Assembly: GCA_963628165.1 (NCBI GenBank)
Contig: CAVGEG010000002.1
Span: forward strand, 20,678-80,389
Length of the DNA stretch: 59,712 nucleotides
Direction: 5' to 3'
Source of the DNA: Paratractidigestivibacter sp.
GTDB taxonomy: Bacteria > Planctomycetota > Planctomycetia > Pirellulales > Thermoguttaceae
Within the stretch, counting starts at the first letter, position 1. Each line of letters starts with the position of its first letter. This document shows positions 8,604 through 59,712 of the stretch, piece after piece. Both the position numbers and the translations under genes were made by a program. The notes under the pieces are model-generated. The model searched no databases and was not told where the DNA came from. It worked only from the letters and a program-made list of their open reading frames with translations.

Positions 8604-10100
8604 ATGGCGGAAGAAAAAAAATACGATATCGGTTTGATGGGTCTGGCGGTCATGGGCCAGAATCTCGTTTTGAACATGGTGGATCATGGCTTTGACGTCG
8701 CGGTCTTCAACCGCACGACTAGTAAGGTCGACGATTTCCTCGCGACCCCCGAAGCGCAGTCCAAGGGCGATAAGCTCACCGGCGCGCACTCCCTCAAAGA
8801 GCTGGTTTCCAAGCTCAAGAGCCCTCGCAAAATCATGCTGATGATTAAGTCGAAAGACGCCGTTCCCGCTCCTGAACTCGCGCTCTATCCCGAGAACGCG
8901 GCGGTCGACGCGGTCATCGCCGAACTTCTTCCCCTTCTCGATAAGGGCGACGTCATCATCGACGGCGGCAACACGCAATTCAAAGACACCGAACGTCGTA
9001 CGCAATACCTCCAGCAGCACGGCGTCCGTTACATCGGCACGGGCGTTTCCGGAGGAGAAGAAGGCGCGCGGCGAGGTCCGAGCATGATGCCCGGCGGCGA
9101 TCCTGAAGCGTGGCCTCTCGTGAAACCGATTTTCCAGGCGATCTCCGCGAAAGTCGGTCCGAATCACGACGTTCCTTGTTGCGATTGGATCGGCGATCGC
9201 GGCGCCGGGCACTATGTCAAAATGGTGCACAACGGGGTCGAATACGGCGACATGCAGATCATCAGCGACGCTTACTGGATTCTCAAAAATGCGCTGGGTC
9301 TCACCAACAAAGAACTTTACGAAACCTTTGCCGAATGGAACAAGACGGAGCTCGACAGCTATCTCGTCGAAATCACGCGCGATATCTTCACGGTCGACGA
9401 TCCCGAAACGGGCAAGCCGCTCCTCGATCTTATTCTCGATTGCGCGGGCGCGAAAGGCACGGGCAAATGGATGAGCCAGTTGGCTCTCGACCTTGGCGTT
9501 CCGAGCACGCTCGTGACGGAAGCGGTCTACGCGCGCGCGATCTCCGCGATGAAGTCGCAACGCGTCAACGCGAGCAAAGCGCTCTCGGGCCCCGCGACGA
9601 AATTCGAAGGGAATCGCGACGAATTCATCGCGCAGGTCAAGCAAGCGCTTTATGCGTCGAAGATCTGTAGCTACGCGCAAGGTTTCGTCCAAATGCAAGC
9701 CGCCGCGAAAGAATACGGCTGGACCTTGGATTGCGGACGCATCGCCCTTCTCTGGCGCGGCGGTTGCATCATCCGCGCGGTATTCCTTGAACGCATCAAG
9801 GAAGCGTTCGACAAGAACCCCGAGCTCGAAAACCTCCTCCTCGATCCTTACTTCAAGGCGTCGGTCGAGAACGCGCAGTCCGCTTGGCGAAACGTCGTCA
9901 AAACGGCGATCGAACTCGGCGTTCCGACGCCCGGTTTCACGACCGCGCTCACCTATTACGACAGCCTCCGCTCCGCGTCGCTCCCCGCGAACATGATCCA
10001 GGCGCAGCGCGACTACTTCGGCGCCCACACCTATCTGCGCGTTGACAAACCCGGCGAAGGTCCCTTCCACACCGATTGGATCAACGTTAAGAAGAGCTGA
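8604..10100 (+). CDS. gnd: 6-phosphogluconate dehydrogenase, decarboxylating
   Basis: The protein is gnd-like over its full length (IGLMGLAVMGQNLVLNM, IIDGGNT, GAGHYVKMVHNGVEYGDMQ, RDYFGAHTY). The ORF extends up to 8376, but homology begins at MAEEKKYDIG (ATG 8604). Confidence 0.93.
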   Translation: MAEEKKYDIGLMGLAVMGQNLVLNMVDHGFDVAVFNRTTSKVDDFLATPEAQSKGDKLTGAHSLKELVSKLKSPRKIMLMIKSKDAVPAPELALYPENAAVDAVIAELLPLLDKGDVIIDGGNTQFKDTERRTQYLQQHGVRYIGTGVSGGEEGARRGPSMMPGGDPEAWPLVKPIFQAISAKVGPNHDVPCCDWIGDRGAGHYVKMVHNGVEYGDMQIISDAYWILKNALGLTNKELYETFAEWNKTELDSYLVEITRDIFTVDDPETGKPLLDLILDCAGAKGTGKWMSQLALDLGVPSTLVTEAVYARAISAMKSQRVNASKALSGPATKFEGNRDEFIAQVKQALYASKICSYAQGFVQMQAAAKEYGWTLDCGRIALLWRGGCIIRAVFLERIKEAFDKNPELENLLLDPYFKASVENAQSAWRNVVKTAIELGVPTPGFTTALTYYDSLRSASLPANMIQAQRDYFGAHTYLRVDKPGEGPFHTDWINVKKS

Positions 10101-10252: not shown

Positions 10253-11689
10253 TCAGTTGGCGTACCAGGAGTTGGACTCGAAGTTGACGGCGAAGGAATC
10301 GAGGGTATCGTCGACCTTCACGTTGTTTTCGAGGGGTTCCCAAGGATTGACGAGAACGCCGCCGGTGACGGAGACGACGCCGTTTCCAGCGCGACGGGCG
10401 AGAGAATCGCTAGCGACTTGCGCGGGAGCGGCAAGGGCGGGAATCTGCGTGGAACCGATAAGTTCGGTCAGCTGGCAACCAGCCTTCTTCTGGAGATTTT
10501 CGCGATAGATCAACGCGGCGACGAGAGCGACGTCCATGCATCCGCGCGCTTCGGCGAAGACGGGCTCGGCCTTGGCGATATCGTCGTAACGTTCGTTCAT
10601 TCTTTCGGCGAACTTTTCGGCGACCGCGTCGCGCTTCGCGCTAACTTGGCGTTCGCCGGCGGTCGTGAAGTATTCGCGTTCCGTCATAACGTTGACGCTC
10701 GCTTCGGAAAGCTTCCAGACGTTCGCGTCGTCGCTACGATAGATCGTGTCATACTTGGGTTCCATCCAGAAACGTTGAGCGTAAGCGCTCTTGGAACCGG
10801 GACGGATCATGCTGAAGTAGCTCTTGAAGTTCTTGACGTTGATTTCGTCGAAGCCCAGAGAGACTCTCTTGAGTCGATAGTCGGCGGCGACGAGAACGTT
10901 CGCCATGCGGCTGTCGGCGGGGATACCAGTAAGGGTCACGTTCATGTTGCCCATCGCAGCGACGTTGAGTTCAGGATTCGCGCGATTCGGCAAAGACGCG
11001 AGGCGTGCAAGAGCTTCCTGGCTGGGGTCGATCGAGCAGGAGATGAGTTCGTGATTGTCGGCGGTCAACGCGCGCACCGCGACGATCAAATCTTCGAGCT
11101 GATAGACGGGCTTGCCGGATTTAGAGCCGACGATCGCGCCGTTTTCGGCGACGATCCAAGGCTCGGCGGCTCCGACGAGGTAAATATCGTTCGCTTCAGG
11201 ATCGGCGACGACGTACTCAATGGAGGTCAACCCGCCAAGGTAACGAATGGCGTCGGCGACTTTGAGATTATTCTCGGCGCTTTCCTTAAGGATCGCGTCA
11301 ATGCGCTTGAGGGAGATCTTGCGAGAGTCGGAAGGCTTGCTCAAATCTTCCGGAATCGCTTCCATCTGCGCGAGAATTTCGGCGGTCGACGCTTGCAATT
11401 CACCCTGAGTCGCGTTGCGAAGGATACGATTGGAGTCGATCATCACGCCGCCGACGCTACTGCGGTAACCGTAGCGATAGTAAGCGTTGTCGTAATCGCT
11501 GTTGTTGTTATTGTTGTTATTATTATTGTTGTTGTTGTTATTATTATTATTGTTGTTATTGTTGTTATTGTTGTTATTCGCGCACATTCCCTGCGGGGTC
11601 AAACAGGCTAAAAGTCCAAGTAGAAGGAACGTGCAAAGCGCCGTTCTAGCGACGCGGAACGTCGAGGTCGTGATATGGTTAAGTTTCAT
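10253..11689 (-). CDS. Secreted protein with an N-terminal 26-residue poly-asparagine tract
   Basis: A 478-aa ORF has a signal-like N-terminus (ALCTFLLLGLLACLTPQGMCA) followed directly by N x26. The globular remainder has no motif I can name with confidence. Confidence 0.75.
   Translation of the reverse strand: MKLNHITTSTFRVARTALCTFLLLGLLACLTPQGMCANNNNNNNNNNNNNNNNNNNNNNNNNNSDYDNAYYRYGYRSSVGGVMIDSNRILRNATQGELQASTAEILAQMEAIPEDLSKPSDSRKISLKRIDAILKESAENNLKVADAIRYLGGLTSIEYVVADPEANDIYLVGAAEPWIVAENGAIVGSKSGKPVYQLEDLIVAVRALTADNHELISCSIDPSQEALARLASLPNRANPELNVAAMGNMNVTLTGIPADSRMANVLVAADYRLKRVSLGFDEINVKNFKSYFSMIRPGSKSAYAQRFWMEPKYDTIYRSDDANVWKLSEASVNVMTEREYFTTAGERQVSAKRDAVAEKFAERMNERYDDIAKAEPVFAEARGCMDVALVAALIYRENLQKKAGCQLTELIGSTQIPALAAPAQVASDSLARRAGNGVVSVTGGVLVNPWEPLENNVKVDDTLDSFAVNFESNSWYAN
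11501..11578 (-). repeat. (AAY)26 trinucleotide tract encoding poly-Asn
   Basis: The + strand reads 26 consecutive GTT or ATT triplets across 11501-11578. Confidence 0.95.
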
Positions 11690-35464: not shown

Positions 35465-36100
35465 TCAGTTGGCGCAAGCGGGAGCGCAAGGAGCGACAGG
35501 CGCGCAAGCGGACGGAGCGCAAGCAGGACGGCAGACCTTGAAGCTGAACTTGAAGCAGGGCTTGCAGGGCTTGCAGCAGACAGGCTTGCAGGGCTTGCAG
35601 CAGACAGGCTTGCAGGGCTTGCAGCAGACGGGCTTGCAGGGCTTGAAGCACTTCTTGAAGCAGAGGGGCTTGCAAGGAGCGCAAGCGGGAGCGGCGTCGC
35701 AAGCGGGAGCGCAAGGAGCGACGGGTTCGCAAGCGGCGGGAGCGGCGTCGCAAGCGGGAGCGCAAGGAGCGACAGGCTCGCAAGCGGCGGGAGCGCAAGC
35801 GGCGGGAGCGCAACAGCAGAACTTAACGCGGACGGGGCAAAGAGCCTTGAGGTTCTTGAAGGGAGTGAAGGGCTTGCAACAAGGAGCGCAAGGAGCGGCG
35901 TCGCAAGCGGGAGCGCAAGGAGCAACGTCGCAAGCGGGAGCGCAAGGAGCGACAGGTTCGCAAGGAGCGACAGCTTCAGCGGCTTCAGTGACGGCAGCTT
36001 CAGGAGCCGGAGCGGCTTCTTGAGCGGCTTCTTGAGCGAAAGTGAAAGAGGCGGAAAGGACGAGCGCCAACGCCGCTAACGAGCTCAGAAATTTTTTCAT
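35465..36100 (-). CDS. Secreted Cys/Pro/Ala-rich tandem-repeat protein (211 aa, about one residue in five is Cys)
   Basis: This is the only one of five overlapping frames with an AGGAG Shine-Dalgarno site and a signal peptide (MKKFLSSLAALALVLSASFTFAQ). The body consists of EPVAPCAPACDAAP and CKPCKPVC repeats. Confidence 0.7.
   Translation of the reverse strand: MKKFLSSLAALALVLSASFTFAQEAAQEAAPAPEAAVTEAAEAVAPCEPVAPCAPACDVAPCAPACDAAPCAPCCKPFTPFKNLKALCPVRVKFCCCAPAACAPAACEPVAPCAPACDAAPAACEPVAPCAPACDAAPACAPCKPLCFKKCFKPCKPVCCKPCKPVCCKPCKPVCCKPCKPCFKFSFKVCRPACAPSACAPVAPCAPACAN
35561..35647. repeat. Tandem 24-nt repeat (about 3.6 copies) inside the Cys-rich gene
   Basis: The unit cttgcagggcttgcagcagacagg starts at 35561, 35585 and 35609, and a partial fourth copy follows. 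It encodes the CKPCKPVC units on the minus strand. Confidence 0.9.
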
Positions 36101-51094: not shown

Positions 51095-52078
51095 ATGTCT
51101 TACGCAAGAAATAAGGGTTTTACCCTAGTCGAGTTACTCGTTGTCATCGCCATTATCGGTATTCTTATCGGACTGCTCCTTCCCGCAGTTCAAGCGGCGC
51201 GCGAGGCGGCGCGACGCATGCAGTGTACCAATAATCTCAAGCAAATGGGATTAGCGATCCACAACTTCCACGACGTCAACGGCGGCCTTCCTCCAAGCGC
51301 TATCGGGTGGCATCGCATCACCTTCTGGGCGTTCCTCTATCCCTTCTCCGAACAGCAGAACCTCTGGGAAATTGTCGGTCCAAGCGCATCGCATGACCCC
51401 GTTACGCTCGGGCGTTACTTCTGGAACACCGGCGGCGGCTGGGCCGGCGTCACCCTTAACGACGAACAGAAGAAGGGGTTCGCCTCCGTACCGTACATGA
51501 CCTGCCCGTCGCGTCGCTCCGGCCCCGCGCATAAGGAATGGGACGCCGATACCGGCGGCGCGGCTACGCCTGGTCCTCAGACCGACTACGCCGTCATCAT
51601 GGCGCACGAAAAGGGCGATTCCGGCGACGCGCACTATCACGTCCGCGCTTGCGTAACTCGCCCCTCCGACTGGTCCCGCGTCAACGCCGATCAGAAGGGT
51701 CCTTTCCGCGGCGCGCGCCTCAAGGAAGCTGAAAACTTCAAAAGCGGTATAAAATACTCCGACACTCTCTCCCGCTTCACCGACGGCACGAGCAATCAGT
51801 TCTTCATCGGCGAAAAGCACATCCCGATTGGTAAACTCGGACAATGCAACTCTCAGGCCCCGAGCACGGACAACTACTCCTGGTGTTACGACTGCTCGTA
51901 CCTGAGCACGATCGAAGCGTCCGACGAAGGCTCGATCTACAAGTGCCTCCAAACCGGTTGGTCCTACAACAGCGACGGTTCGCGCAACGCTCCGACGTCC
52001 CTCCTTGCCAGCGGTATCCTCGGTCAGTATGACGGAATCGGCAACGTCGCGACGATCAACTCCACGATCGGAAGCTAG
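51095..52078 (+). CDS. DUF1559 protein with a type IV pilin-like N-terminus, ended early by an in-frame TAG
   Basis: The N-terminus reads [45 protein letters not shown]. The ORF stops at TAG 52076-52078, just before the family's conserved C-terminal block. Confidence 0.85.
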
Positions 52079-52204
52079 CGCTCCGGCGGTTCGAATATAC
52101 TCATGGGAGACGGCGCCGTCCGCTTCTTCAGCGCTGCCGCCGCGCAGAAGGTTCTCGGGCGCTACGCCAATATCAGCGGCGGACTCACGCTCAATCAAAA
52201 CTGA
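52079..52204 (+). pseudogene. Orphaned in-frame C-terminal segment of the DUF1559 gene
   Basis: The same frame continues after the TAG as [41 protein letters not shown], ending at TGA 52202-52204. It aligns with [17 protein letters not shown] in the paralog at 42208. Confidence 0.75.
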
Positions 52205-52845
52205 AATCCAACCAACCTTTCGCGCAATAAGTCCGCTCCTCTCCCCCGCCCTCTCTCTCCTTCTCTCCTACCCTTCGCCCACGCATATGAAGACGGCCCG
52301 CGCGCTTCTTCTACGCGACGCGAGTCGCGTTGCGACGCCCTTCTTTCCGTCTCGCGCGTCGCGACTCGTCGCAATCCTACCACGCTTCTCTCTTTCCGAT
52401 CCCGAACGCGCCCAGACGCCGCGCAGTTCCCCCTCGGCGCGTCATGCAAATTCCACGGCGTTCGCCTCCCTTTTCCATCCAACGTCTCTTTGAAAAGCGC
52501 TCGTGCTTATTGCGTCTCCCTTCTTTTTTCTTATAATTTATCTACTATTCAAAACGCGGAACGACCCTCTTTTCACGCCAACCAAGGGCTTTCGAAAGAG
52601 GTTAGCCGAGAAATTTTTCGCTAAACCGTATGAAAGAAGGCGCCCTTTCTATATTCCAAGAGAGAGTCGCGCGCCTTTTTTCTCGGAATAATTCCGCATT
52701 TTGACAAGGAAACGTCTCCCCTACCTTTGGCAAATTACGGCGAAGAACAATCTACTCGGCACAATAATTCCGAGGACGTTGACAAATTTTTTTAAAGGGA
52801 CGCTCGGAAAGCGCGGTGAGCGAAAAAGGACGACGGAACGCGACA

Positions 52846-52961
52846 AGAAATAAAGAAGACCTCCGAAGAGGTCTTCCTTCACACACGCTGTATGACCGAT
52901 TGCTCGGGCTTTGAAACTCAATAATGAGTTTTTTATTTGAACTCAGTAGTGTAATCTCAAC
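52846..52961 (-). ncRNA. tracrRNA: Predicted tracrRNA of the type II-A system
   Basis: The minus strand reads GGUUGAGAUUACACUACUGAGUUCAAAU, which pairs with the first ~23 nt of the CRISPR repeat as 7 bp, a 3-nt bulge, then 16 bp (G:U pairs included). An AACUCA-UUAU-UGAGUU hairpin (52915-52930) follows, then the terminator GAAGACCUC-UUCG-GAGGUCUUC (52855-52876) with UUUAUUU. Confidence 0.75.
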
Positions 52962-52965
52962 CTTC

Positions 52966-52993
52966 ATTTTAATCAAGAAAGAAAGTGTGTCAA
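52966..52993 (-). promoter_or_regulatory. Sigma70-like promoter driving the tracrRNA
   Basis: On the minus strand, TTGACA (52993-52988) is followed by a 16-nt spacer and TAAAAT (52971-52966). The -35 box lies immediately upstream of the cas9 ATG (52995). The predicted TSS is about 52959-52962, at the start of the anti-repeat. Confidence 0.6.
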
Positions 52994-52994
52994 T

Positions 52995-55900
52995 ATGGAA
53001 GATTCAAATAACTATTATCTCGGTCTCGATATCGGAACGGACTCGATCGGCTACGCGGTCGCGAATAAGAACTACGAACTCCTGAAATTCAAAGGGGAGC
53101 CGATGTGGGGCGCGACCCTCTTTGAATCCGCCAAGAACGCGAGCGAACGCCGTCCCTTCCGCACGGGTCGCCGCCGACTCGACCGTCGACAGGCGCGCGT
53201 GAGTCTCCTCAACGAACTATTCGCCAAGGAGATCTGCAAGATCGATCCGAAATTCTTCATTCGCCGTCGCGAAAGCGCGCTCTACGCGGAGGACGCACGT
53301 GACGGGGTCAAGATCTTCGCCGGTCAGGGGATCAACGATATTGAATATTACAAGCAATTTCCGACGATTCACCACTTGATCTTCCGTCTGATGAAGAACC
53401 GCGACGCGCACGACGTTCGTCTCGTCTATCTCGCGTGCGCGTGGCTCGTCGCCCACCGCGGTCACTTCCTCATCGATATCGAGCCAGAGAAAGCCCTCGA
53501 CGTTCTCGACTTCCAGAGCGCCTTTGTCGACTTGAATCAATGTCTCGAGAGTAACGGGTACGCGCTCCCTTGGGTCGACGGACTCAAAGCCGAGACGTTA
53601 AAGGAAATTCTTCAAAAACGAAGTCGACTAACGGAAAAAAAGGGTGAAATTACCAAAGTACTCAAAAAAGACGCGAAAGGAGAACCCGACGACGACGAAA
53701 ACGCGACCCGTTCCTTCAAGGCCAGTATCTTCTCGGATCTCCTAGCGGGGAAGAAGATCAGCGCGGAGGCTCTCTTCGAGAATCAGGAGTACGCCGACGT
53801 CGAAACTTTTAGCGTCAAGCAAGGGGACGACGAACTCGCGCCGATCCTCTCCGTTCTTGGCGACGACGCGGAAATTCTCCTGAAAATACGCGCCCTCACG
53901 GACTGCGCGAGTCTCGTCGCCGTCATGAACGGCGCGGAAAGCATCTCCGACGCCAAGATCAAGGTCTACGATCAGCACAAGAAGGATCTTAGCTACCTCA
54001 AACATTTTGTCCAAAAATACCTTCCCGATAGTTACGACGACCTCTTCAAGAACGCCGAAAAAGACAACTACGTCGCCTACAGCAAGAATATCAAACGCGT
54101 CAAAGGGGGCGTCGGCGAGAAATTCGCCTTTGTCAACCAAGAGATTTTCAGCGACAACCTTCGTAAGATTCTTAAAAACACAGAAGAAAAAGTCGCCGAG
54201 GAAGATCGGCAGGCGTTCCGCGAGATGTATGACCGTCTAGAAAAGTACGACTTCCTCCCGAAGCAGAAGAACGGGGACAATCGCCTGATTCCGTACCAGC
54301 TCTACTACGTCGAACTCGCGAAGATCCTCGAGAACGCGGCAAAATATCTCCCCTTCCTCAACGCGGCGGACGACGACGGGATCACGACGAAACAGAAGAT
54401 CCTCGATACCTTTACGTTCCGCGTTCCCTACTTCGTCGGGCCCCTCAAGGAAGAGGGGGACGACAAATCGAAAAACGCATGGCTTGTGCGCAAGGGAAAA
54501 GGGCGCATTCTCCCCTGGAACTTCGATAAGCTTGTCGACAAAGACGCCTGCGAAAAAGAGTTTATTAACCGAATGACGAATAGCTGCACGTACCTACCGG
54601 GGGAAAAAGTCTTACCGGAGAATTCCCTCCTCTATAGCGAATTCAAGGTTCTCAACGAGTTGAATAATCTCAAAGTGGACGGGCTCTCAATTCCAGTCGA
54701 CGTCAAAACATGCCTCTATGAAGAGCTCTTCATGAAAAAGCGACGCGTCACTGTGGCGGCAATCAAAAAGTACTTGACGGCGCGTTGCCTACTCAAAGAA
54801 GGGAACGAACTCTCGGGGATCGACGACACGATCAAATCCTCCCTCAAATCATATCACGACTTTAAGAAGCTCTTGGACGCGAAGGTTCTCACGGAGACGG
54901 AAGTCGAGGAAATTATCGAACACGCCGCGTATACGGAAGATAAAAGGCGAATGCGCCAATGGCTGAAGCACAAATATGAACAACTTTCGGAGGAAGACGT
55001 CAGATATATTGCGCGACTCGACCTCAAGGGCTTCGGACGCCTGTCGCGACAGTTCCTCAACGGGATCGTGGGGAAACTTCAAAAAACGGACGACGCCGAA
55101 TACACGATTATCGAGTGGATGCGCAAGACGAACATGAATCTCATGCAACTCCTTTCGGATGACTTCAACTTTGCGAAGAAGATCGAGGAGTTCCGTAGGA
55201 AATTCTACGAAGGAAAGGCGCGAACGCTCGAGGAAGAGCTTGACGACGCGTACGTCTCTAACGCAGTAAAGCGCCAGATTTACCGTACCATGGCGGTCGT
55301 CGACGAAGTCAAAAAGGCGATGAAGAGAGACCCCGAGAAGATCTTCGTGGAGATGGCGCGCGGGGGAACCCCCGATCAGAAGGGCAAGAGGACGACGAGT
55401 CGACTCGAGCAGCTCAAAGAACTGTATAAAAAGATCAAGACGGAGGACGCTCGAGAGCTCCAAGAAGAGCTGAATTCTATGCTTAGCGGAAAAGACGAGG
55501 GGCGACTTCAACAAAAGAGGCTCTACCTCTACTATTTGCAGGAGGGGAAATGCGCCTACACGGGGGATTCGATCGACCTTAAATACTTGTCGGGCGATCG
55601 CTACGATATCGACCATATCTACCCGCAGCGCTTAGTAAAGGACGACAGTCTCCTGAACAACATGGTTCTCGTCAAGAGCGAAGAAAACGGCCGTAAAAGT
55701 GACAAGTATCCGATTCCCCCGGACGTCCGAAGTAAAATGAAGGAGTTCTGGAAGCATTTGCGCGAGGTCGGGCTCATGACGGATGAAAAGTATCGCCGTC
55801 TGACGCGCACGAATGAATTCACGGAAGACGAAAAAATGGGCTTCATAAACCGTCAGCTGGTGGAGACGCGACAATCGACGAAGGTCGTCGCGAACTTGCT

Positions 55901-57104
55901 CAAAAAGCGGTTTCCGAATTCGGAGATCGTTTACGTCAAAGCGGGGCTTGTCTCGGAATTCCGTCAAGAGTTCGACCTTCCGAAGTCGCGATTAATCAAC
56001 GACCTGCACCATGCGAAGGACGCGTACCTGAACGTCGTCGTCGGCAACGTTTACGACATGCGCTTCTCAAAGAAGTTCTTCTCCCTTGAGAAAGATAAGG
56101 AGTACAACGTGCAGGTGGGCAAGCTCTTCAAGAAGGATCATTATTACCAAGGCGAATGTTACTGGGAGCGCGATCGCGGCTTTTCCCTCGTGCGGAAAAC
56201 GATGGAGAAGAACGCCGTTCATCTGACGAAGTTTACCTACCGTCGTAAAGGCGGCTTCTTTGACCAGAACCCTCTGAGGAAAAAAGCGGGGCTCGTTCCG
56301 CGAAAGAAAGATTTACCGACAGAAAAGTACGGCGGATACAATAAGGCGGCGGCGTCTTTCTATGTTCTTGCGCGCTATACGATTGGCCAAACATGCGACG
56401 TGATCTTTGCCCCGATCGAACTTCTTGACTTGCAAAAGTACCACGGAAGTGCAGAAGACACGAAAGAATGCGTCGAGGAATCGATCCGCGAAATAATCGG
56501 TAAAGAGCCTCAAGACGTCGAGCTTATGTTGAATGGGCGAATCCTAAAGATTCGAACGCTCATTTCTCTCGACGGAACGCTCATGACGCTTAACGGAAAA
56601 CAAAATGGCGGTAGGCAAATAATTCTTTCTCCTCTATTGTCCCTTTGCCTAGGAAAAGACGAAGAATACGTCCAAAAGCTTGAATCGTTCATGAAAAAGC
56701 TAGAAAGCAATAAGAATCTCCTCCCTAGCAAAGAACACGACAAGATTTCTAAAGAGAAAAATCTTCTTCTCTTCGATCGTCTAGTGAATAAATTGAAGAG
56801 TTGGCCGTTCATTAATATCCCCAACAACCCCCTCGCTGAGTTACAGAAAGAATCAGCCCGAAAGAAATTTGAATCAGCGGATGAACTCGTACAAATAAAA
56901 ATATTAGTGAATCTGATCCAATACATAGGAGGTAAAAAACAGTCCTGCAACTTTACGGACATTGGCGGTAAAAAAACAGTGGGATCTATATCAATGAGTA
57001 GCAAACTATCCAACTGGAAGGGAAAATATAAGGAAGTGCGCATTGTCGACAGATCGTGCGCTGGGTTATTCGAATCACAAAGTAAAAATATATTGGAGTG
57101 GTAA
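52995..57104 (+). CDS. cas9: Cas9, type II-A (1369 aa)
   Basis: RuvC-I is YYLGLDIGTDSIGYAV (D12). The Arg-rich bridge helix is RRPFRTGRRRLDRRQARVSLL. HNH is YDIDHIYPQ (D873/H874) plus NNMVLV. RuvC-III is NDLHHAKDAYLN. The size is similar to SpCas9. Confidence 0.95.
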   Translation: MEDSNNYYLGLDIGTDSIGYAVANKNYELLKFKGEPMWGATLFESAKNASERRPFRTGRRRLDRRQARVSLLNELFAKEICKIDPKFFIRRRESALYAEDARDGVKIFAGQGINDIEYYKQFPTIHHLIFRLMKNRDAHDVRLVYLACAWLVAHRGHFLIDIEPEKALDVLDFQSAFVDLNQCLESNGYALPWVDGLKAETLKEILQKRSRLTEKKGEITKVLKKDAKGEPDDDENATRSFKASIFSDLLAGKKISAEALFENQEYADVETFSVKQGDDELAPILSVLGDDAEILLKIRALTDCASLVAVMNGAESISDAKIKVYDQHKKDLSYLKHFVQKYLPDSYDDLFKNAEKDNYVAYSKNIKRVKGGVGEKFAFVNQEIFSDNLRKILKNTEEKVAEEDRQAFREMYDRLEKYDFLPKQKNGDNRLIPYQLYYVELAKILENAAKYLPFLNAADDDGITTKQKILDTFTFRVPYFVGPLKEEGDDKSKNAWLVRKGKGRILPWNFDKLVDKDACEKEFINRMTNSCTYLPGEKVLPENSLLYSEFKVLNELNNLKVDGLSIPVDVKTCLYEELFMKKRRVTVAAIKKYLTARCLLKEGNELSGIDDTIKSSLKSYHDFKKLLDAKVLTETEVEEIIEHAAYTEDKRRMRQWLKHKYEQLSEEDVRYIARLDLKGFGRLSRQFLNGIVGKLQKTDDAEYTIIEWMRKTNMNLMQLLSDDFNFAKKIEEFRRKFYEGKARTLEEELDDAYVSNAVKRQIYRTMAVVDEVKKAMKRDPEKIFVEMARGGTPDQKGKRTTSRLEQLKELYKKIKTEDARELQEELNSMLSGKDEGRLQQKRLYLYYLQEGKCAYTGDSIDLKYLSGDRYDIDHIYPQRLVKDDSLLNNMVLVKSEENGRKSDKYPIPPDVRSKMKEFWKHLREVGLMTDEKYRRLTRTNEFTEDEKMGFINRQLVETRQSTKVVANLLKKRFPNSEIVYVKAGLVSEFRQEFDLPKSRLINDLHHAKDAYLNVVVGNVYDMRFSKKFFSLEKDKEYNVQVGKLFKKDHYYQGECYWERDRGFSLVRKTMEKNAVHLTKFTYRRKGGFFDQNPLRKKAGLVPRKKDLPTEKYGGYNKAAASFYVLARYTIGQTCDVIFAPIELLDLQKYHGSAEDTKECVEESIREIIGKEPQDVELMLNGRILKIRTLISLDGTLMTLNGKQNGGRQIILSPLLSLCLGKDEEYVQKLESFMKKLESNKNLLPSKEHDKISKEKNLLLFDRLVNKLKSWPFINIPNNPLAELQKESARKKFESADELVQIKILVNLIQYIGGKKQSCNFTDIGGKKTVGSISMSSKLSNWKGKYKEVRIVDRSCAGLFESQSKNILEW

Positions 57105-57976
57105 TGGCGTGGAGAATTGTTGTGGTCTCCGAACGGAGCAAACTCGATTTCAAAATGAACTACATGGTGGTGCGAGGAACTGAGACGACTCGCCTTTTTA
57201 TCGACGAGATCGCCATTTTGATCATCGAAAATCAAAACGTCTCGTTAACGGCATACCTTCTCGCGGCGTTGACTGAACGCAACGTGAAGATCCTCTTCTG
57301 CAACGGCAAGCACGCCCCGGAAATGGAACTCGCGCCCCTCTACGGCGGTTACAACACGTCGCAGAGATTGCGAGAGCAAATCGCGTGGCGCGCGGAAACG
57401 AAAGCGGGAGTGTGGCGCGCGATCGTCGGCGAGAAGATTCGCAATCAGAGCAAACTTTTGCGCGAAATCGGACGCGCGGCGGAAGCGGATCATCTCCTTG
57501 GGTATATCGACGAACTGAAAGGAGACGACGATTCGAATCGCGAAGGGCACGCCGCGAAGGTCTACTTCAACGCCCTTTTTGGCAAGGGGTTCACGCGTAG
57601 CGCGAAGATTCCGCTCAACGGCATGCTTAACTACGGTTACTCGATTCTTCTGGGCGCGGTCAGTCGCGAAATCGTCGCCAGCGGGTACGTCACGCAGCTG
57701 GGGATCCACCACCGCAACGATTCCAATCGCCATAATTTCACCTGCGATCTCATGGAGCCGATGCGTCCCTTAATCGACCGCGTCGTGAAGGATCTCCCAG
57801 CGCGCGATCTCGACCCCGAGCTCAAACAGACAATCGTCCAACTTGCAAATCTCAACGTTCGGATCAACAACGAGGAGCAAACCTTCTTGAACGCGATTCG
57901 CATTTACGTTCGGAGCGTCTTTGACGCGCTCAATCACGACGATCCCAAGTTAATCAAATTCAGCGAAAATGAGTAA
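57104..57976 (+). CDS. cas1: Cas1 integrase, type II
   Basis: It has MAWRIVVVSERSKLDFKMNYMVV, NGMLNYGYSIL and LGIHHRN...NFTCDLMEPMRPLID. Its ATG overlaps the cas9 stop (TAATG). Confidence 0.93.
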   Translation: MAWRIVVVSERSKLDFKMNYMVVRGTETTRLFIDEIAILIIENQNVSLTAYLLAALTERNVKILFCNGKHAPEMELAPLYGGYNTSQRLREQIAWRAETKAGVWRAIVGEKIRNQSKLLREIGRAAEADHLLGYIDELKGDDDSNREGHAAKVYFNALFGKGFTRSAKIPLNGMLNYGYSILLGAVSREIVASGYVTQLGIHHRNDSNRHNFTCDLMEPMRPLIDRVVKDLPARDLDPELKQTIVQLANLNVRINNEEQTFLNAIRIYVRSVFDALNHDDPKLIKFSENE

Positions 57977-58289
57977 TAGATTTATGAGAACGATCGTATT
58001 TTTCGACCTGCCGATCAAGAATCCGACGGAGAAGCGAGAGTATCGCCGATTTCGGAAAGTTCTGATTAAGAACGGATTCGTGATGGTGCAAAAATCGGTC
58101 TATAGCAAATTGGTTCTGAACGCGACGGCGCAGAAATCCCTTGCGAACACGCTCCGCAATGAAGTTCCCGCCGTAGGAACCGTTCAGATGCTCACGATCA
58201 CCGAAAAACAATACGCGGGGATCGCCTTCATCGCCGGCTCGGGGACGAGCGACGTCGTCGATTCCATGGAAAGGGTTATTTTCTTATGA
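57969..58289 (+). CDS. cas2: Cas2
   Basis: It has MRTIVFFDLP...EYRRFRKVLIKNGFVMVQKSVYSKLVLN and overlaps the end of cas1 by 8 nt. An alternative ATG lies at 57984. Confidence 0.9.
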   Translation: MSNRFMRTIVFFDLPIKNPTEKREYRRFRKVLIKNGFVMVQKSVYSKLVLNATAQKSLANTLRNEVPAVGTVQMLTITEKQYAGIAFIAGSGTSDVVDSMERVIFL

Positions 58290-58951
58290 TTTTATGTCAT
58301 CCAGAAATTGAACGCGTCTTCGATTTTTCGGGGAAGAAGATTCCGTCTTTAGTCGTCGAAAGGCCCGCGCTTTTTCGCAAGCTCGTTCTCGACATTTACG
58401 AACAGTGCGACGGAGGCGAGGGAGAGTTCGTCCTTTCCCGAGACGACGTCGTTCAGAGCATGCTTTCGAACGTCGAGTTTATCGACAATTGCGTTCATTA
58501 CGACTTCTCCCCCAAGGCGTTAACGACGCGCATCCTGAAGTCTCTTGAACGCGAGGCGATGAACGAAGTCTTTCATCTCAAGACAGTCGAGCTGTTGCAA
58601 AAGATTCAAGAGTACCTCAACGAGTTGAGCTTTTCGTTCAACACGACCCTTGAATTCACGCGATGCTCGCTTCCGGGACTTCTCAAGTGCGCGGGGGTGA
58701 CGATCCGCGACGACTACGAAGATCCCCTTGAAAGGCTCTTCGACTACATGGAGCTTGTTCGAGAATTCGAGAAAGATCGTATCTTCATCCTTCTAAACCT
58801 GCGGAGTTATTACGCCGACGCGGACGTCGAAGCCTTCTTAGGAGCGCTCGTCGACCATGAGTATCAGGCGTTCCTTCTCGACAATGTCGATCGCCAAAAA
58901 TTACCGTACGAAGAGCGAACGACTATTGACGACGACCTCTGCGAAGTTTAA
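58286..58951 (+). CDS. csn2: Csn2 (type II-A signature protein)
   Basis: It is 221 aa and its start overlaps the cas2 stop in ATGA. It is collinear with canonical Csn2 (SLVVERPALFRKLVLDIYEQ, IFILLNLRSYYADADVEAFL, AFLLDNVD, TIDDDL). Confidence 0.82.
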   Translation: MILCHPEIERVFDFSGKKIPSLVVERPALFRKLVLDIYEQCDGGEGEFVLSRDDVVQSMLSNVEFIDNCVHYDFSPKALTTRILKSLEREAMNEVFHLKTVELLQKIQEYLNELSFSFNTTLEFTRCSLPGLLKCAGVTIRDDYEDPLERLFDYMELVREFEKDRIFILLNLRSYYADADVEAFLGALVDHEYQAFLLDNVDRQKLPYEERTTIDDDLCEV

Positions 58952-59062
58952 AATACAGGTATGAATAGTAGCAAACCTCAGATCCCGATCCTTTCCACGA
59001 AGCTAGTAACTTCGCGCGTTCGTTTTGACGTCCGCACGGGCTCGATTTGGGATTTGAGGGTT
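58952..59062 (+). promoter_or_regulatory. CRISPR leader
   Basis: This 111-nt non-coding segment lies between csn2 and the first repeat. It ends in GATTTGG GATTTGAGGGTT. Confidence 0.7.
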
Positions 59063-59712
59063 GTTTGAGAGTAGTGTAATTTCAGAGTAGTCCAATACCA
59101 ACGCGACTTAATTAGAATTCTTGACGACTTGTTTGAGAGTAGTGTAATTTCAGAGTAGTCCAATACTATACGTTTTAGCGACGCCCTAGGGTCGTCGGTT
59201 TGAGAGTAGTGTAATTTCAGAGTAGTCCAATACCTGGAGCGGCAAAGACGCCGACGGGAATCTGTTTGAGAGTAGTGTAATTTCAGAGTAGTCCAATACC
59301 CGCGTATGTTTGAGGACTAACGCAGGCTAGTTTGAGAGTAGTGTAATTTCAGAGTAGTCCAATACCGCGCGCCTTCTTGGAATCTTGCAACGTCAGTTTG
59401 AGAGTAGTGTAATTTCAGAGTAGTCCAATACAGATATATAGTAGCTACTCGCGATAACTGGGTTTGAGAGTAGTGTAATTTCAGAGTAGTCCAATACTCT
59501 GGCGCTTGCGTCGCCATCCAGCAGTACGTTTGAGAGTAGTGTAATTTCAGAGTAGTCCAATACTACGTGGCGGCGGTTCCGCCTTGCGAGTCGGTTTGAG
59601 AGTAGTGTAATTTCAGAGTAGTCCAATACAAAACTTCAGCCCCTTCTACCTGCAAGCACGTTTGAGAGTAGTGTAATTTCAGAGTAGTCCAATACTACGT
59701 GGCGGCGGTTCC
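59063..59712 (+). CRISPR. CRISPR array: at least 10 identical 36-bp repeats, 9 complete spacers and a truncated tenth; it continues past the window
   Basis: The repeat GTTTGAGAGTAGTGTAATTTCAGAGTAGTCCAATAC starts at 59063, 59131, 59198, 59264, 59330, 59396, 59462, 59528, 59594 and 59660. Spacer lengths are 32, 31, then 30 x7. Confidence 0.98.

Follow-up and report, generated by a model that had tools for sequence, protein, structure and literature searches.

What is encoded in the intergenic DNA between a DUF1559 gene and cas9 in the 59,712-nt stretch of contig CAVGEG010000002.1 (assembly GCA_963628165.1, from a Thermoguttaceae genome of the Planctomycetota) that we analyzed in full and refer to as the window? 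The preliminary description of this DNA had proposed that positions 52846-52993 specify, on the minus strand and divergently from cas9, a trans-activating RNA (tracrRNA) of a CRISPR system, equipped with its own promoter, anti-repeat and terminator. Genomic context, conservation in related loci, helix covariation and a family covariance model bear this proposal out and, judging from sequence comparison, this segment very probably encodes the tracrRNA of a type II-A CRISPR-Cas9 system that is itself intact. Chylinski et al. (2013; PMC3737331) set out a four-step workflow for predicting such RNAs, and the features it looks for are all present. The system itself is readily classified, as cas9, cas1, cas2 and csn2 form one operon ahead of a leader and an array, and its Cas9 has the DIGT and DxDH motifs and matches all five Cas9 Pfam domains. 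The gene is a routine addition to a well-known RNA class, in the canonical II-A layout.

Pairing energy between the candidate and the CRISPR repeat is insignificant on its own, and what carries the case is the comparison with other loci. Genomes were scanned with the window Cas9 protein, which gave 44 loci. These include two planctomycete metagenome-assembled genomes (MAGs; 73% and 68% Cas9 identity), Bacillota at 42-53%, gut Clostridia among them, Acidaminococcus intestini and one Desulfovibrionaceae MAG. Usable upstream sequence was available for 38 loci, the window counted, and the same gene was found on the minus strand upstream of cas9 in all 38. Further planctomycete relatives were obtained via Cas9 homologues, and ten additional planctomycete loci also carry an orthologue of the tracrRNA gene upstream of cas9. 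The layout shared by the 38 loci begins with the start-codon complement, TTGACA, about 17 nt, TAnnnT, the anti-repeat, ..UUACACUAC-GAG-UUCAAAUAA.. and a small hairpin, and continues with ..UCGUCGGC-loop-GCCGA.., GCACA-GYG-UGUGC and the terminator. The Cas9 homologues with 68-88% identity are a planctomycete group set apart by a gap, the next relatives reaching 55% at most. Contigs of this group are syntenic with the window: genes for 145- and 213-amino-acid proteins are followed by the DUF1559 gene, which ~0.8-0.9 kb of intergenic DNA separates from the cas operon. The closest relative, L113, has a Cas9 that is 88% identical to that of the window and an identical CRISPR repeat. Metagenomes were also scanned for more copies of the planctomycete type with the 18-mer AGTTCAAATAAAAAACTC; 64 stretches matched, but an adjacent anti-repeat was missing from every one, and all of them are therefore regarded as chance matches.

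Does the conservation follow the structure of an RNA? We scored a four-helix structure on an alignment of 37 distinct copies (alignment A1) against 500 shuffles and found that 85% of cells were paired versus 76% in the shuffles and 17-54% in slid controls, and that there were 93 double-change cells versus 34, values which none of the 500 shuffles attained. For instance, columns 28:45 and 29:44 of hairpin 1 alternate between A:U, G:C and U:A across the clade, and all five counted pairs of the terminator stem show compensatory changes across loci. The stem of hairpin 1 has been lengthened by an insertion in the planctomycete branch. The four covarying helices make up a conserved 3′ structure, a nexus plus hairpins, of the kind that Cas9 binds, and such binding is predicted here. 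The sequence AAAA separates the anti-repeat from the three hairpins. The preliminary description had a 6-bp hairpin leading straight into the terminator; both of these exist, and the two hairpins between them (52907-52896 and 52894-52880) had been overlooked. Two minus-strand open reading frames in a mechanical list, 52721-52921 (66 amino acids) and 52752-52976 (74 amino acids), overlap this structure and could be taken to encode small proteins. That they do is scarcely credible because conservation follows the RNA helices and not codons. Both frames start with TTG, have no Pfam match and are broken by 1-nt indels in relatives, in which the open stretches differ in frame and length; the earlier judgment that the RNA is the better explanation of both frames was sound.

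Independent of the close relatives is covariance model R1 (alignment A5), which represents 33 more distant non-planctomycete homologues, mostly from Firmicutes, with the window and its close relatives excluded. Its single match in the window (47.3 bits, E = 1.9e-7) is significant and full length and covers minus-strand positions 52852-52958, and it makes one strong match at the equivalent place in each of the ten planctomycete loci. The match assigns the window copy to the tracrRNAs of the II-A clade with GTTTGAGAG repeats.

The anti-repeat, GGTTGAGATTACACTACTGAGTTCAAAT, occupies 52962-52935 of the minus strand. The leader is conserved at the csn2 side of the array, from which it follows that the array is transcribed from the plus strand and that its anti-repeat belongs on the minus strand, and the pairing we found has the orientation that fits this transcription. 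Co-folding of one repeat with the predicted RNA reproduced the pairing described earlier with repeat positions 1-23 (7 bp, a GAG bulge and 16 bp); the 23 bp comprise 19 Watson-Crick and 4 G:U pairs and form together with the three hairpins and the terminator at a total of -58.8 kcal/mol. Folded alone, the tracrRNA has z = -5.0. Additionally, in the 27 loci with arrays, the repeat and the anti-repeat covary in trans at repeat positions 10, 11, 15, 16, 17 and 20.

Read 5′ to 3′, the minus strand ahead of these elements consists of CAT (the complement of the cas9 ATG, 52997-52995), A52994, TTGACA, 16 nt, TAAAAT, GAA and then GGTTGAGATTACACTACTGAGTTCAAAT. The two promoter boxes and their spacing are thus exactly as first described; the anti-repeat, which had been placed about 7 nt after the -10 box, in fact begins (GGUUGAG) 4 nt after it. 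The promoter is of the sigma-70 type with 11 of 12 consensus matches and is the sole promoter-like site in the 1 kb scanned. Because conservation among close relatives begins at a G 8 nt downstream of the -10 box (52958), the preceding 7 nt varying freely, transcription probably starts at about G52958 to G52961, which would leave 14-16 bp in the upper stem and make the RNA 113-116 nt long, a slight revision of the ~116 nt originally estimated. This promoter and a Rho-independent terminator flank the anti-repeat, and both are conserved in relatives. No second minus-strand promoter-like site was found within 300 nt upstream and the predicted start lies at most 4 nt before the anti-repeat; the hallmarks of a long-form tracrRNA, a second promoter and a 5′ extension complementary to the cas promoter, are therefore lacking.

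Several observations weigh against our interpretation. In a thermodynamic scan of the whole window, three unrelated sites reach -28 kcal/mol with the repeat versus -25 kcal/mol here; pairing energy fails to discriminate, since a G/U-rich repeat such as this one finds spurious partners in GC-rich DNA. In a DNA-level alignment the site is the top repeat match outside the array, narrowly (25 versus 22). The duplex, at 21-23 bp, is short for canonical mid-duplex processing by ribonuclease III (RNase III). There is no match to Rfam release 15 at the gathering score anywhere in the window, and at E values up to 10 the region 52500-53100 yields only chance-level matches to unrelated families. Since tracrRNAs diverge strongly between Cas9 clades (PMC3737331), no Rfam match was to be expected, and its absence lowers membership in a sequence family, not in the functional class. 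The window copy also scores lower with R1 (47 bits) than the other planctomycete loci (63-74 bits), and the U-tract of the terminator, whose UUCG-capped stem was described earlier as 9 bp and can be extended to 12 bp, is interrupted (UUCUUUAUUU).

Could the window copy then be a decayed relic, a stray degenerate repeat with promoter- and terminator-like sequence beside it by chance, unexpressed or unused? Its score, the lowest with the family model, its interrupted U-tract, and its hairpins 2 and 3, which are slightly weaker than those of its relatives, would fit such a relic. However, every module is intact and, from the window to L113, the substitutions are compensatory in hairpin 2 (CCGA/UCGG to CCGG/CCGG) and in hairpin 3, and pairing-neutral in the anti-repeat (G12:C to G12:U and U19:G to U19:A). 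The cas genes are full length with their catalytic motifs kept, and the array has 10 identical repeats with varied spacers. Moreover, sites with at least 11 of 12 promoter matches number six in the whole window on both strands (119 kb), or about one per 20 kb, which makes chance placement of one exactly here unlikely. We consider decay very improbable.

A further question is which strand is read. The tracrRNA promoter is fused to the start of cas9. In 33 of the 38 loci there is exactly 1 nt, and in 36 there are 0-3 nt, between the -35 box and the complement of the cas9 start codon, so the earlier remark that tracrRNA transcription and cas9 translation initiation share the same DNA was correct and describes a conserved feature of the clade. 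The DIGT catalytic motif follows 10 codons after the cas9 start and the start codon therefore cannot sit further downstream. In non-planctomycete relatives the cas9 Shine-Dalgarno sequence is inside the spacer of the tracrRNA promoter. Since the -35 box abuts the cas9 start, transcription of cas9 must begin within or beyond the tracrRNA gene and cross its promoter head-on, and the polymerase probably traverses the entire gene. In the window we found no consensus promoter on the cas9 strand within 400 nt; the only conserved plus-strand candidate is TTGCGT-16-TATAAT, ~460 nt upstream of cas9 in the planctomycete loci. Many non-planctomycete relatives (L010, L011, L024, L027, L036 and others) have sigma-70 promoters with 11-12 of 12 matches on the cas9 strand, ~85-160 nt beyond the anti-repeat and just behind or overlapping the tracrRNA 3′ end. 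On sequence grounds, a cas9 mRNA started at one of these promoters would have a 5′ leader that is fully antisense to the tracrRNA. In some loci the terminator of the tracrRNA gene appears bidirectional, so those promoters may or may not feed cas9.

The region could, accordingly, be read as a plus-strand product, the 5′ untranslated leader of the cas9 mRNA, with hairpins that act in that mRNA. This view draws on the lack of room for a cas9 promoter between the tracrRNA start and the ATG, which places the mRNA start inside or beyond the tracrRNA gene, on the cas9-strand consensus promoters behind the tracrRNA terminator in several non-planctomycete relatives, and on the conserved TATAAT ~460 nt upstream in planctomycete loci. 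The base pairs themselves argue otherwise. Read on the minus strand, helix 2 has 18 G:U cells versus no A.C cells and, therefore, the RNA is read from that strand; on the plus strand these 18 cells would become mismatches. Similarly, the G:U pairs of the lower stem with the repeat require a minus-strand RNA, and essentially every locus has both its promoter consensus and its U-tract on that strand. Over all 24 pairs the count is 41 G:U versus 53 A.C, with the A.C number inflated by weakly defined pairs, and when limited to well-supported helices the count favours the minus strand. A plus-strand product in place of the tracrRNA is thus very unlikely. It is only as a replacement that the plus-strand reading fails, because an additional antisense cas9 leader is compatible with a minus-strand tracrRNA.

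What might the overlap mean? It could have a regulatory role, in which an antisense pair of transcripts and promoter interference couple the levels of Cas9 and tracrRNA. The fusion of promoter and cas9 start, conserved across phyla, is a testable case of a built-in antisense/promoter coupling between a nuclease and its RNA cofactor.

Some ~250 nt further upstream, a non-coding block at 52505-52800 on the plus strand (core 52546-52710) is conserved upstream of the tracrRNA terminator in all planctomycete relatives, and the intergenic DNA on both sides of it is barely alignable. The block opens with the TTGCGT-16-TATAAT sequence (TATAAT at 52533-52538), and the fold of the next 165 nt comprises three hairpins enclosed by a closing helix (CAAAACGCGGAA / UUCCGCAUUUUG), with a minimum free energy of -57 kcal/mol and z = -5.3. 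Several G:U pairs indicate the plus strand, covariation is modest (7 sequences), and there is no Rfam match at E values up to 10 across 52500-53100. The block could be a structured leader or attenuator of cas9, or a separate small RNA.

How would the minus-strand RNA act? The mechanism established for type II systems reportedly goes back to work by Deltcheva in 2011. In our model, the sigma-70-type promoter would drive an RNA of ~113-116 nt comprising the anti-repeat at its 5′ end and then the nexus-like hairpin, two hairpins and the terminator. The anti-repeat would pair with each repeat of the CRISPR RNA (crRNA) precursor, a plus-strand transcript starting in the leader, to form a duplex in which the GAG bulge separates a lower stem of 7 bp from an upper one of 14-16 bp. 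By analogy with the established pathway, from which these steps are taken (Chylinski et al., 2013; PMC3737331), Cas9 would then bind the bulged duplex plus the 3′ hairpins, the precursor would be cut into single guides, and the complex of crRNA, tracrRNA and Cas9 would cleave matching DNA that has a protospacer adjacent motif. With the tracrRNA call, annotation is complete for a Cas9 system that looks functional and comes from a phylum studied little so far (Planctomycetota, Thermoguttaceae-like), and the predicted RNA supplies a guide-RNA scaffold for testing this Cas9 as a tool.

One step of this model may run differently in the planctomycete branch. Most non-planctomycete relatives have 34-40 nt, and A. 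intestini 32 nt, between the -10 box and AGUUCAAAU, versus 19-22 nt in the planctomycete branch and locus L003. Approximately 16 nt of the distal anti-repeat have been lost in this branch and in L003, where the anti-repeat ends at repeat position 21-23. The mature crRNA of FrCas9 retains 20 nt of the repeat (PMC8931148), and the end of the planctomycete anti-repeat approximately coincides with the position of this processed 3′ end. The predicted primary tracrRNA of the branch would then begin at about the place where RNase III usually cuts, RNase III may have little duplex to cut, and maturation of the tracrRNA, and perhaps also of the crRNA 3′ end, may proceed without need for RNase III, unlike in the II-A paradigm. 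This natural truncation raises the question of whether II-A crRNA maturation always requires RNase III. The combined proposition, that the overlap with cas9 creates an antisense pair and promoter interference coupling Cas9 and tracrRNA levels and that the planctomycete tracrRNA is pre-trimmed with RNase III dispensable, is a tentative one that we think has perhaps somewhat under one chance in three of being right.

A possible parallel, in function only, is found among the tracrRNAs of type II-C systems (Neisseria meningitidis and Campylobacter jejuni) in which RNase III is dispensable. The parallel would be a tracrRNA with its 5′ end in or near the end of the anti-repeat, as reported for C. 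jejuni (PMC3737331). However, type II-C is another subtype, without csn2 and with a Cas9 of another clade, and promoters internal to the repeats are not evident in the window. The resemblance is a possible idea, drawn by analogy.

Among known systems, the closest solved Cas9 structure is 9jwk (E = 5e-212, full length), which is FrCas9 of Faecalibaculum rodentium (PMC12926199). Its II-A locus has a tracrRNA upstream of cas9 and in the opposite direction, as confirmed by small-RNA sequencing (PMC8931148). The two systems are alike in having csn2, a repeat that begins GTTTGAG, and a common tracrRNA junction, UGAGUUCAAAU, which gives the same lower stem and bulge. In contrast, the upper stems differ, and the nexus and hairpins of the window have no sequence relationship to the 3′ part of the tracrRNA of FrCas9 (CAGGCUCCUAGAGAGAUCCG...). 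Another known relative is the II-A clade with GTTTGAGAG repeats, which comprises the Cas9 of Treponema denticola and many MAGs of gut Clostridia and to whose repeat family the window belongs; the T. denticola repeat is GTTTGAGAGTTGTGTAATTTAAGATGGATCTCAAAC (PMC4607530). The non-planctomycete loci of this clade share the architecture and the invariant core ..UUACAC..GAGUUCAAAUAA..GCACAGYGUGUGC.., and it is their model, R1, that recognizes the window copy. The planctomycete branch differs in its nexus stem, which is 4 bp longer, in the GNRA loop on hairpin 2, and in having UGAG or UAG at the bulge rather than CGAG.

The short-form tracrRNA of Streptococcus pyogenes is also encoded upstream of cas9 on the opposite strand, has a lower stem, bulge and upper stem followed by a nexus, 3′ hairpins and a terminator, and serves a Cas9 that aligns with that of the window over ~1000 residues. 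There are also differences. The window RNA matches no Rfam tracrRNA model, and it has three 3′ stem-loops after the nexus-like hairpin, the terminator counted, whereas the S. pyogenes tracrRNA has two after its nexus. The anti-repeat covers repeat positions 1-21/23 in the window and ~1-33 in S. pyogenes. The tracrRNA promoter, which is ~200 bp from the cas9 start in S. pyogenes, abuts the start codon in the window. Finally, without a second promoter or 5′ extension the window has no counterpart of the S. pyogenes long-form tracrRNA, a natural single guide that represses the cas promoter (PMC11417352).

In A. intestini DSM 21505 (L031) we found a clear tracrRNA homologue upstream of cas9, at 9847-9950 on the minus strand, and no CRISPR array within the 24-kb locus; Chylinski et al. 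(2013) listed A. intestini among the loci without a detectable anti-repeat (PMC3737331). The features of the window locus are collected in Table 1.

Table 1. Window coordinates of the elements of the predicted tracrRNA gene and of the adjoining type II-A CRISPR-Cas9 genes, leader and array.
Feature	Position	Strand	Evidence and remarks
-35 box, TTGACA	52988..52993	-	One base from the cas9 start-codon complement; CAT-1 nt-TTGAC[A/T] conserved in 33/38 loci
-10 box, TAAAAT	52966..52971	-	16-nt spacer; TAnnnT at equal spacing in 36/38 loci
Anti-repeat, upper-stem strand	52945..52962	-	Pairs with repeat positions 8-23 (co-fold and pair map)
Tracr-side bulge, GAG	52942..52944	-	Invariant in non-planctomycete relatives (co-fold and pair map)
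Anti-repeat, lower-stem strand, UUCAAAU	52935..52941	-	Pairs with repeat positions 1-7, G:U at both ends; invariant in 37/37 aligned homologues
Hairpin 1, nexus-like, AACUCA-UUAU-UGAGUU	52915..52930	-	Folding; base of stem covaries across the clade
Hairpin 2, CCGA-GCAA-UCGG, GNRA loop	52896..52907	-	97% paired; three pairs with double changes
Hairpin 3, CAUACA-GCG-UGUGUG	52880..52894	-	89% paired; ACAG.G.G invariant in alignment
Intrinsic terminator	52845..52879	-	9-12 bp stem with UUCG loop (stem 52879-52852), then AUUUCUU
cas9 (1369 amino acids)	52995..57104	+	Pfam Cas9_BH, REC, HNH, RuvC and PI; start codon and ribosome-binding DNA overlap the tracrRNA promoter
cas1, cas2, csn2	57098..58951	+	Pfam Cas_Cas1, CRISPR_Cas2 and Cas_Csn2; adaptation module defining subtype II-A
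CRISPR leader, 111 nt	58952..59062	+	3′ end ...ATTTGAG then GGTT; conserved in relatives
CRISPR array	59063..59712	+	10 identical 36-nt repeats, GTTTGAGAGTAGTGTAATTTCAGAGTAGTCCAATAC; continues past the window end (at least 10 repeats)

With respect to the array, exact protospacers of two spacers were sought in viral contigs and none was found, and no array spacer matches elsewhere in the window at up to 5 mismatches. The junction of leader and first repeat (59052-59066) contains four extra bases, ...ATTTGAG-GGTT-GTTTGAG, whereas in L113 the ATTTGAG directly adjoins the first repeat. In II-A systems, spacer integration is anchored by this end of the leader, and the four extra bases might affect spacer acquisition at the first repeat. 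Spacers 1 and 2 are 32 and 31 nt long and the remaining spacers 30 nt. Spacers 8 (59564-59593) and 10 (59696-59712) share their first 17 nt (TACGTGGCGGCGGTTCC), which looks like a duplicated spacer, spacer 10 being cut by the window end and so only partly comparable.

Upstream of the tracrRNA gene's terminator side, the DUF1559/N-methyl gene (51095-52078) stops at an in-frame TAG (52076-52078) that replaces a conserved Trp codon (TGG). Beyond the TAG, 41 codons that lead up to the ancestral stop at 52204 are still well conserved with relatives, in which the protein is 369 amino acids long. The TAG is a recent nonsense mutation or a sequencing error. Judged by eye from translations, DUF1559 (51095-52204) looks far closer to its copies in L110 and L002 than does Cas9 (52995-57104; 68-73%), and it thus appears that either the cas operon evolves much faster than the chromosome around it or lineages have exchanged it. 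Elsewhere in the window, 35481-36038 consists of dense tandem repeats with units of 9-51 nt rich in GGAGCGCAAGCG, and there is a TGT/TGTTATTGT repeat at 11500-11578.

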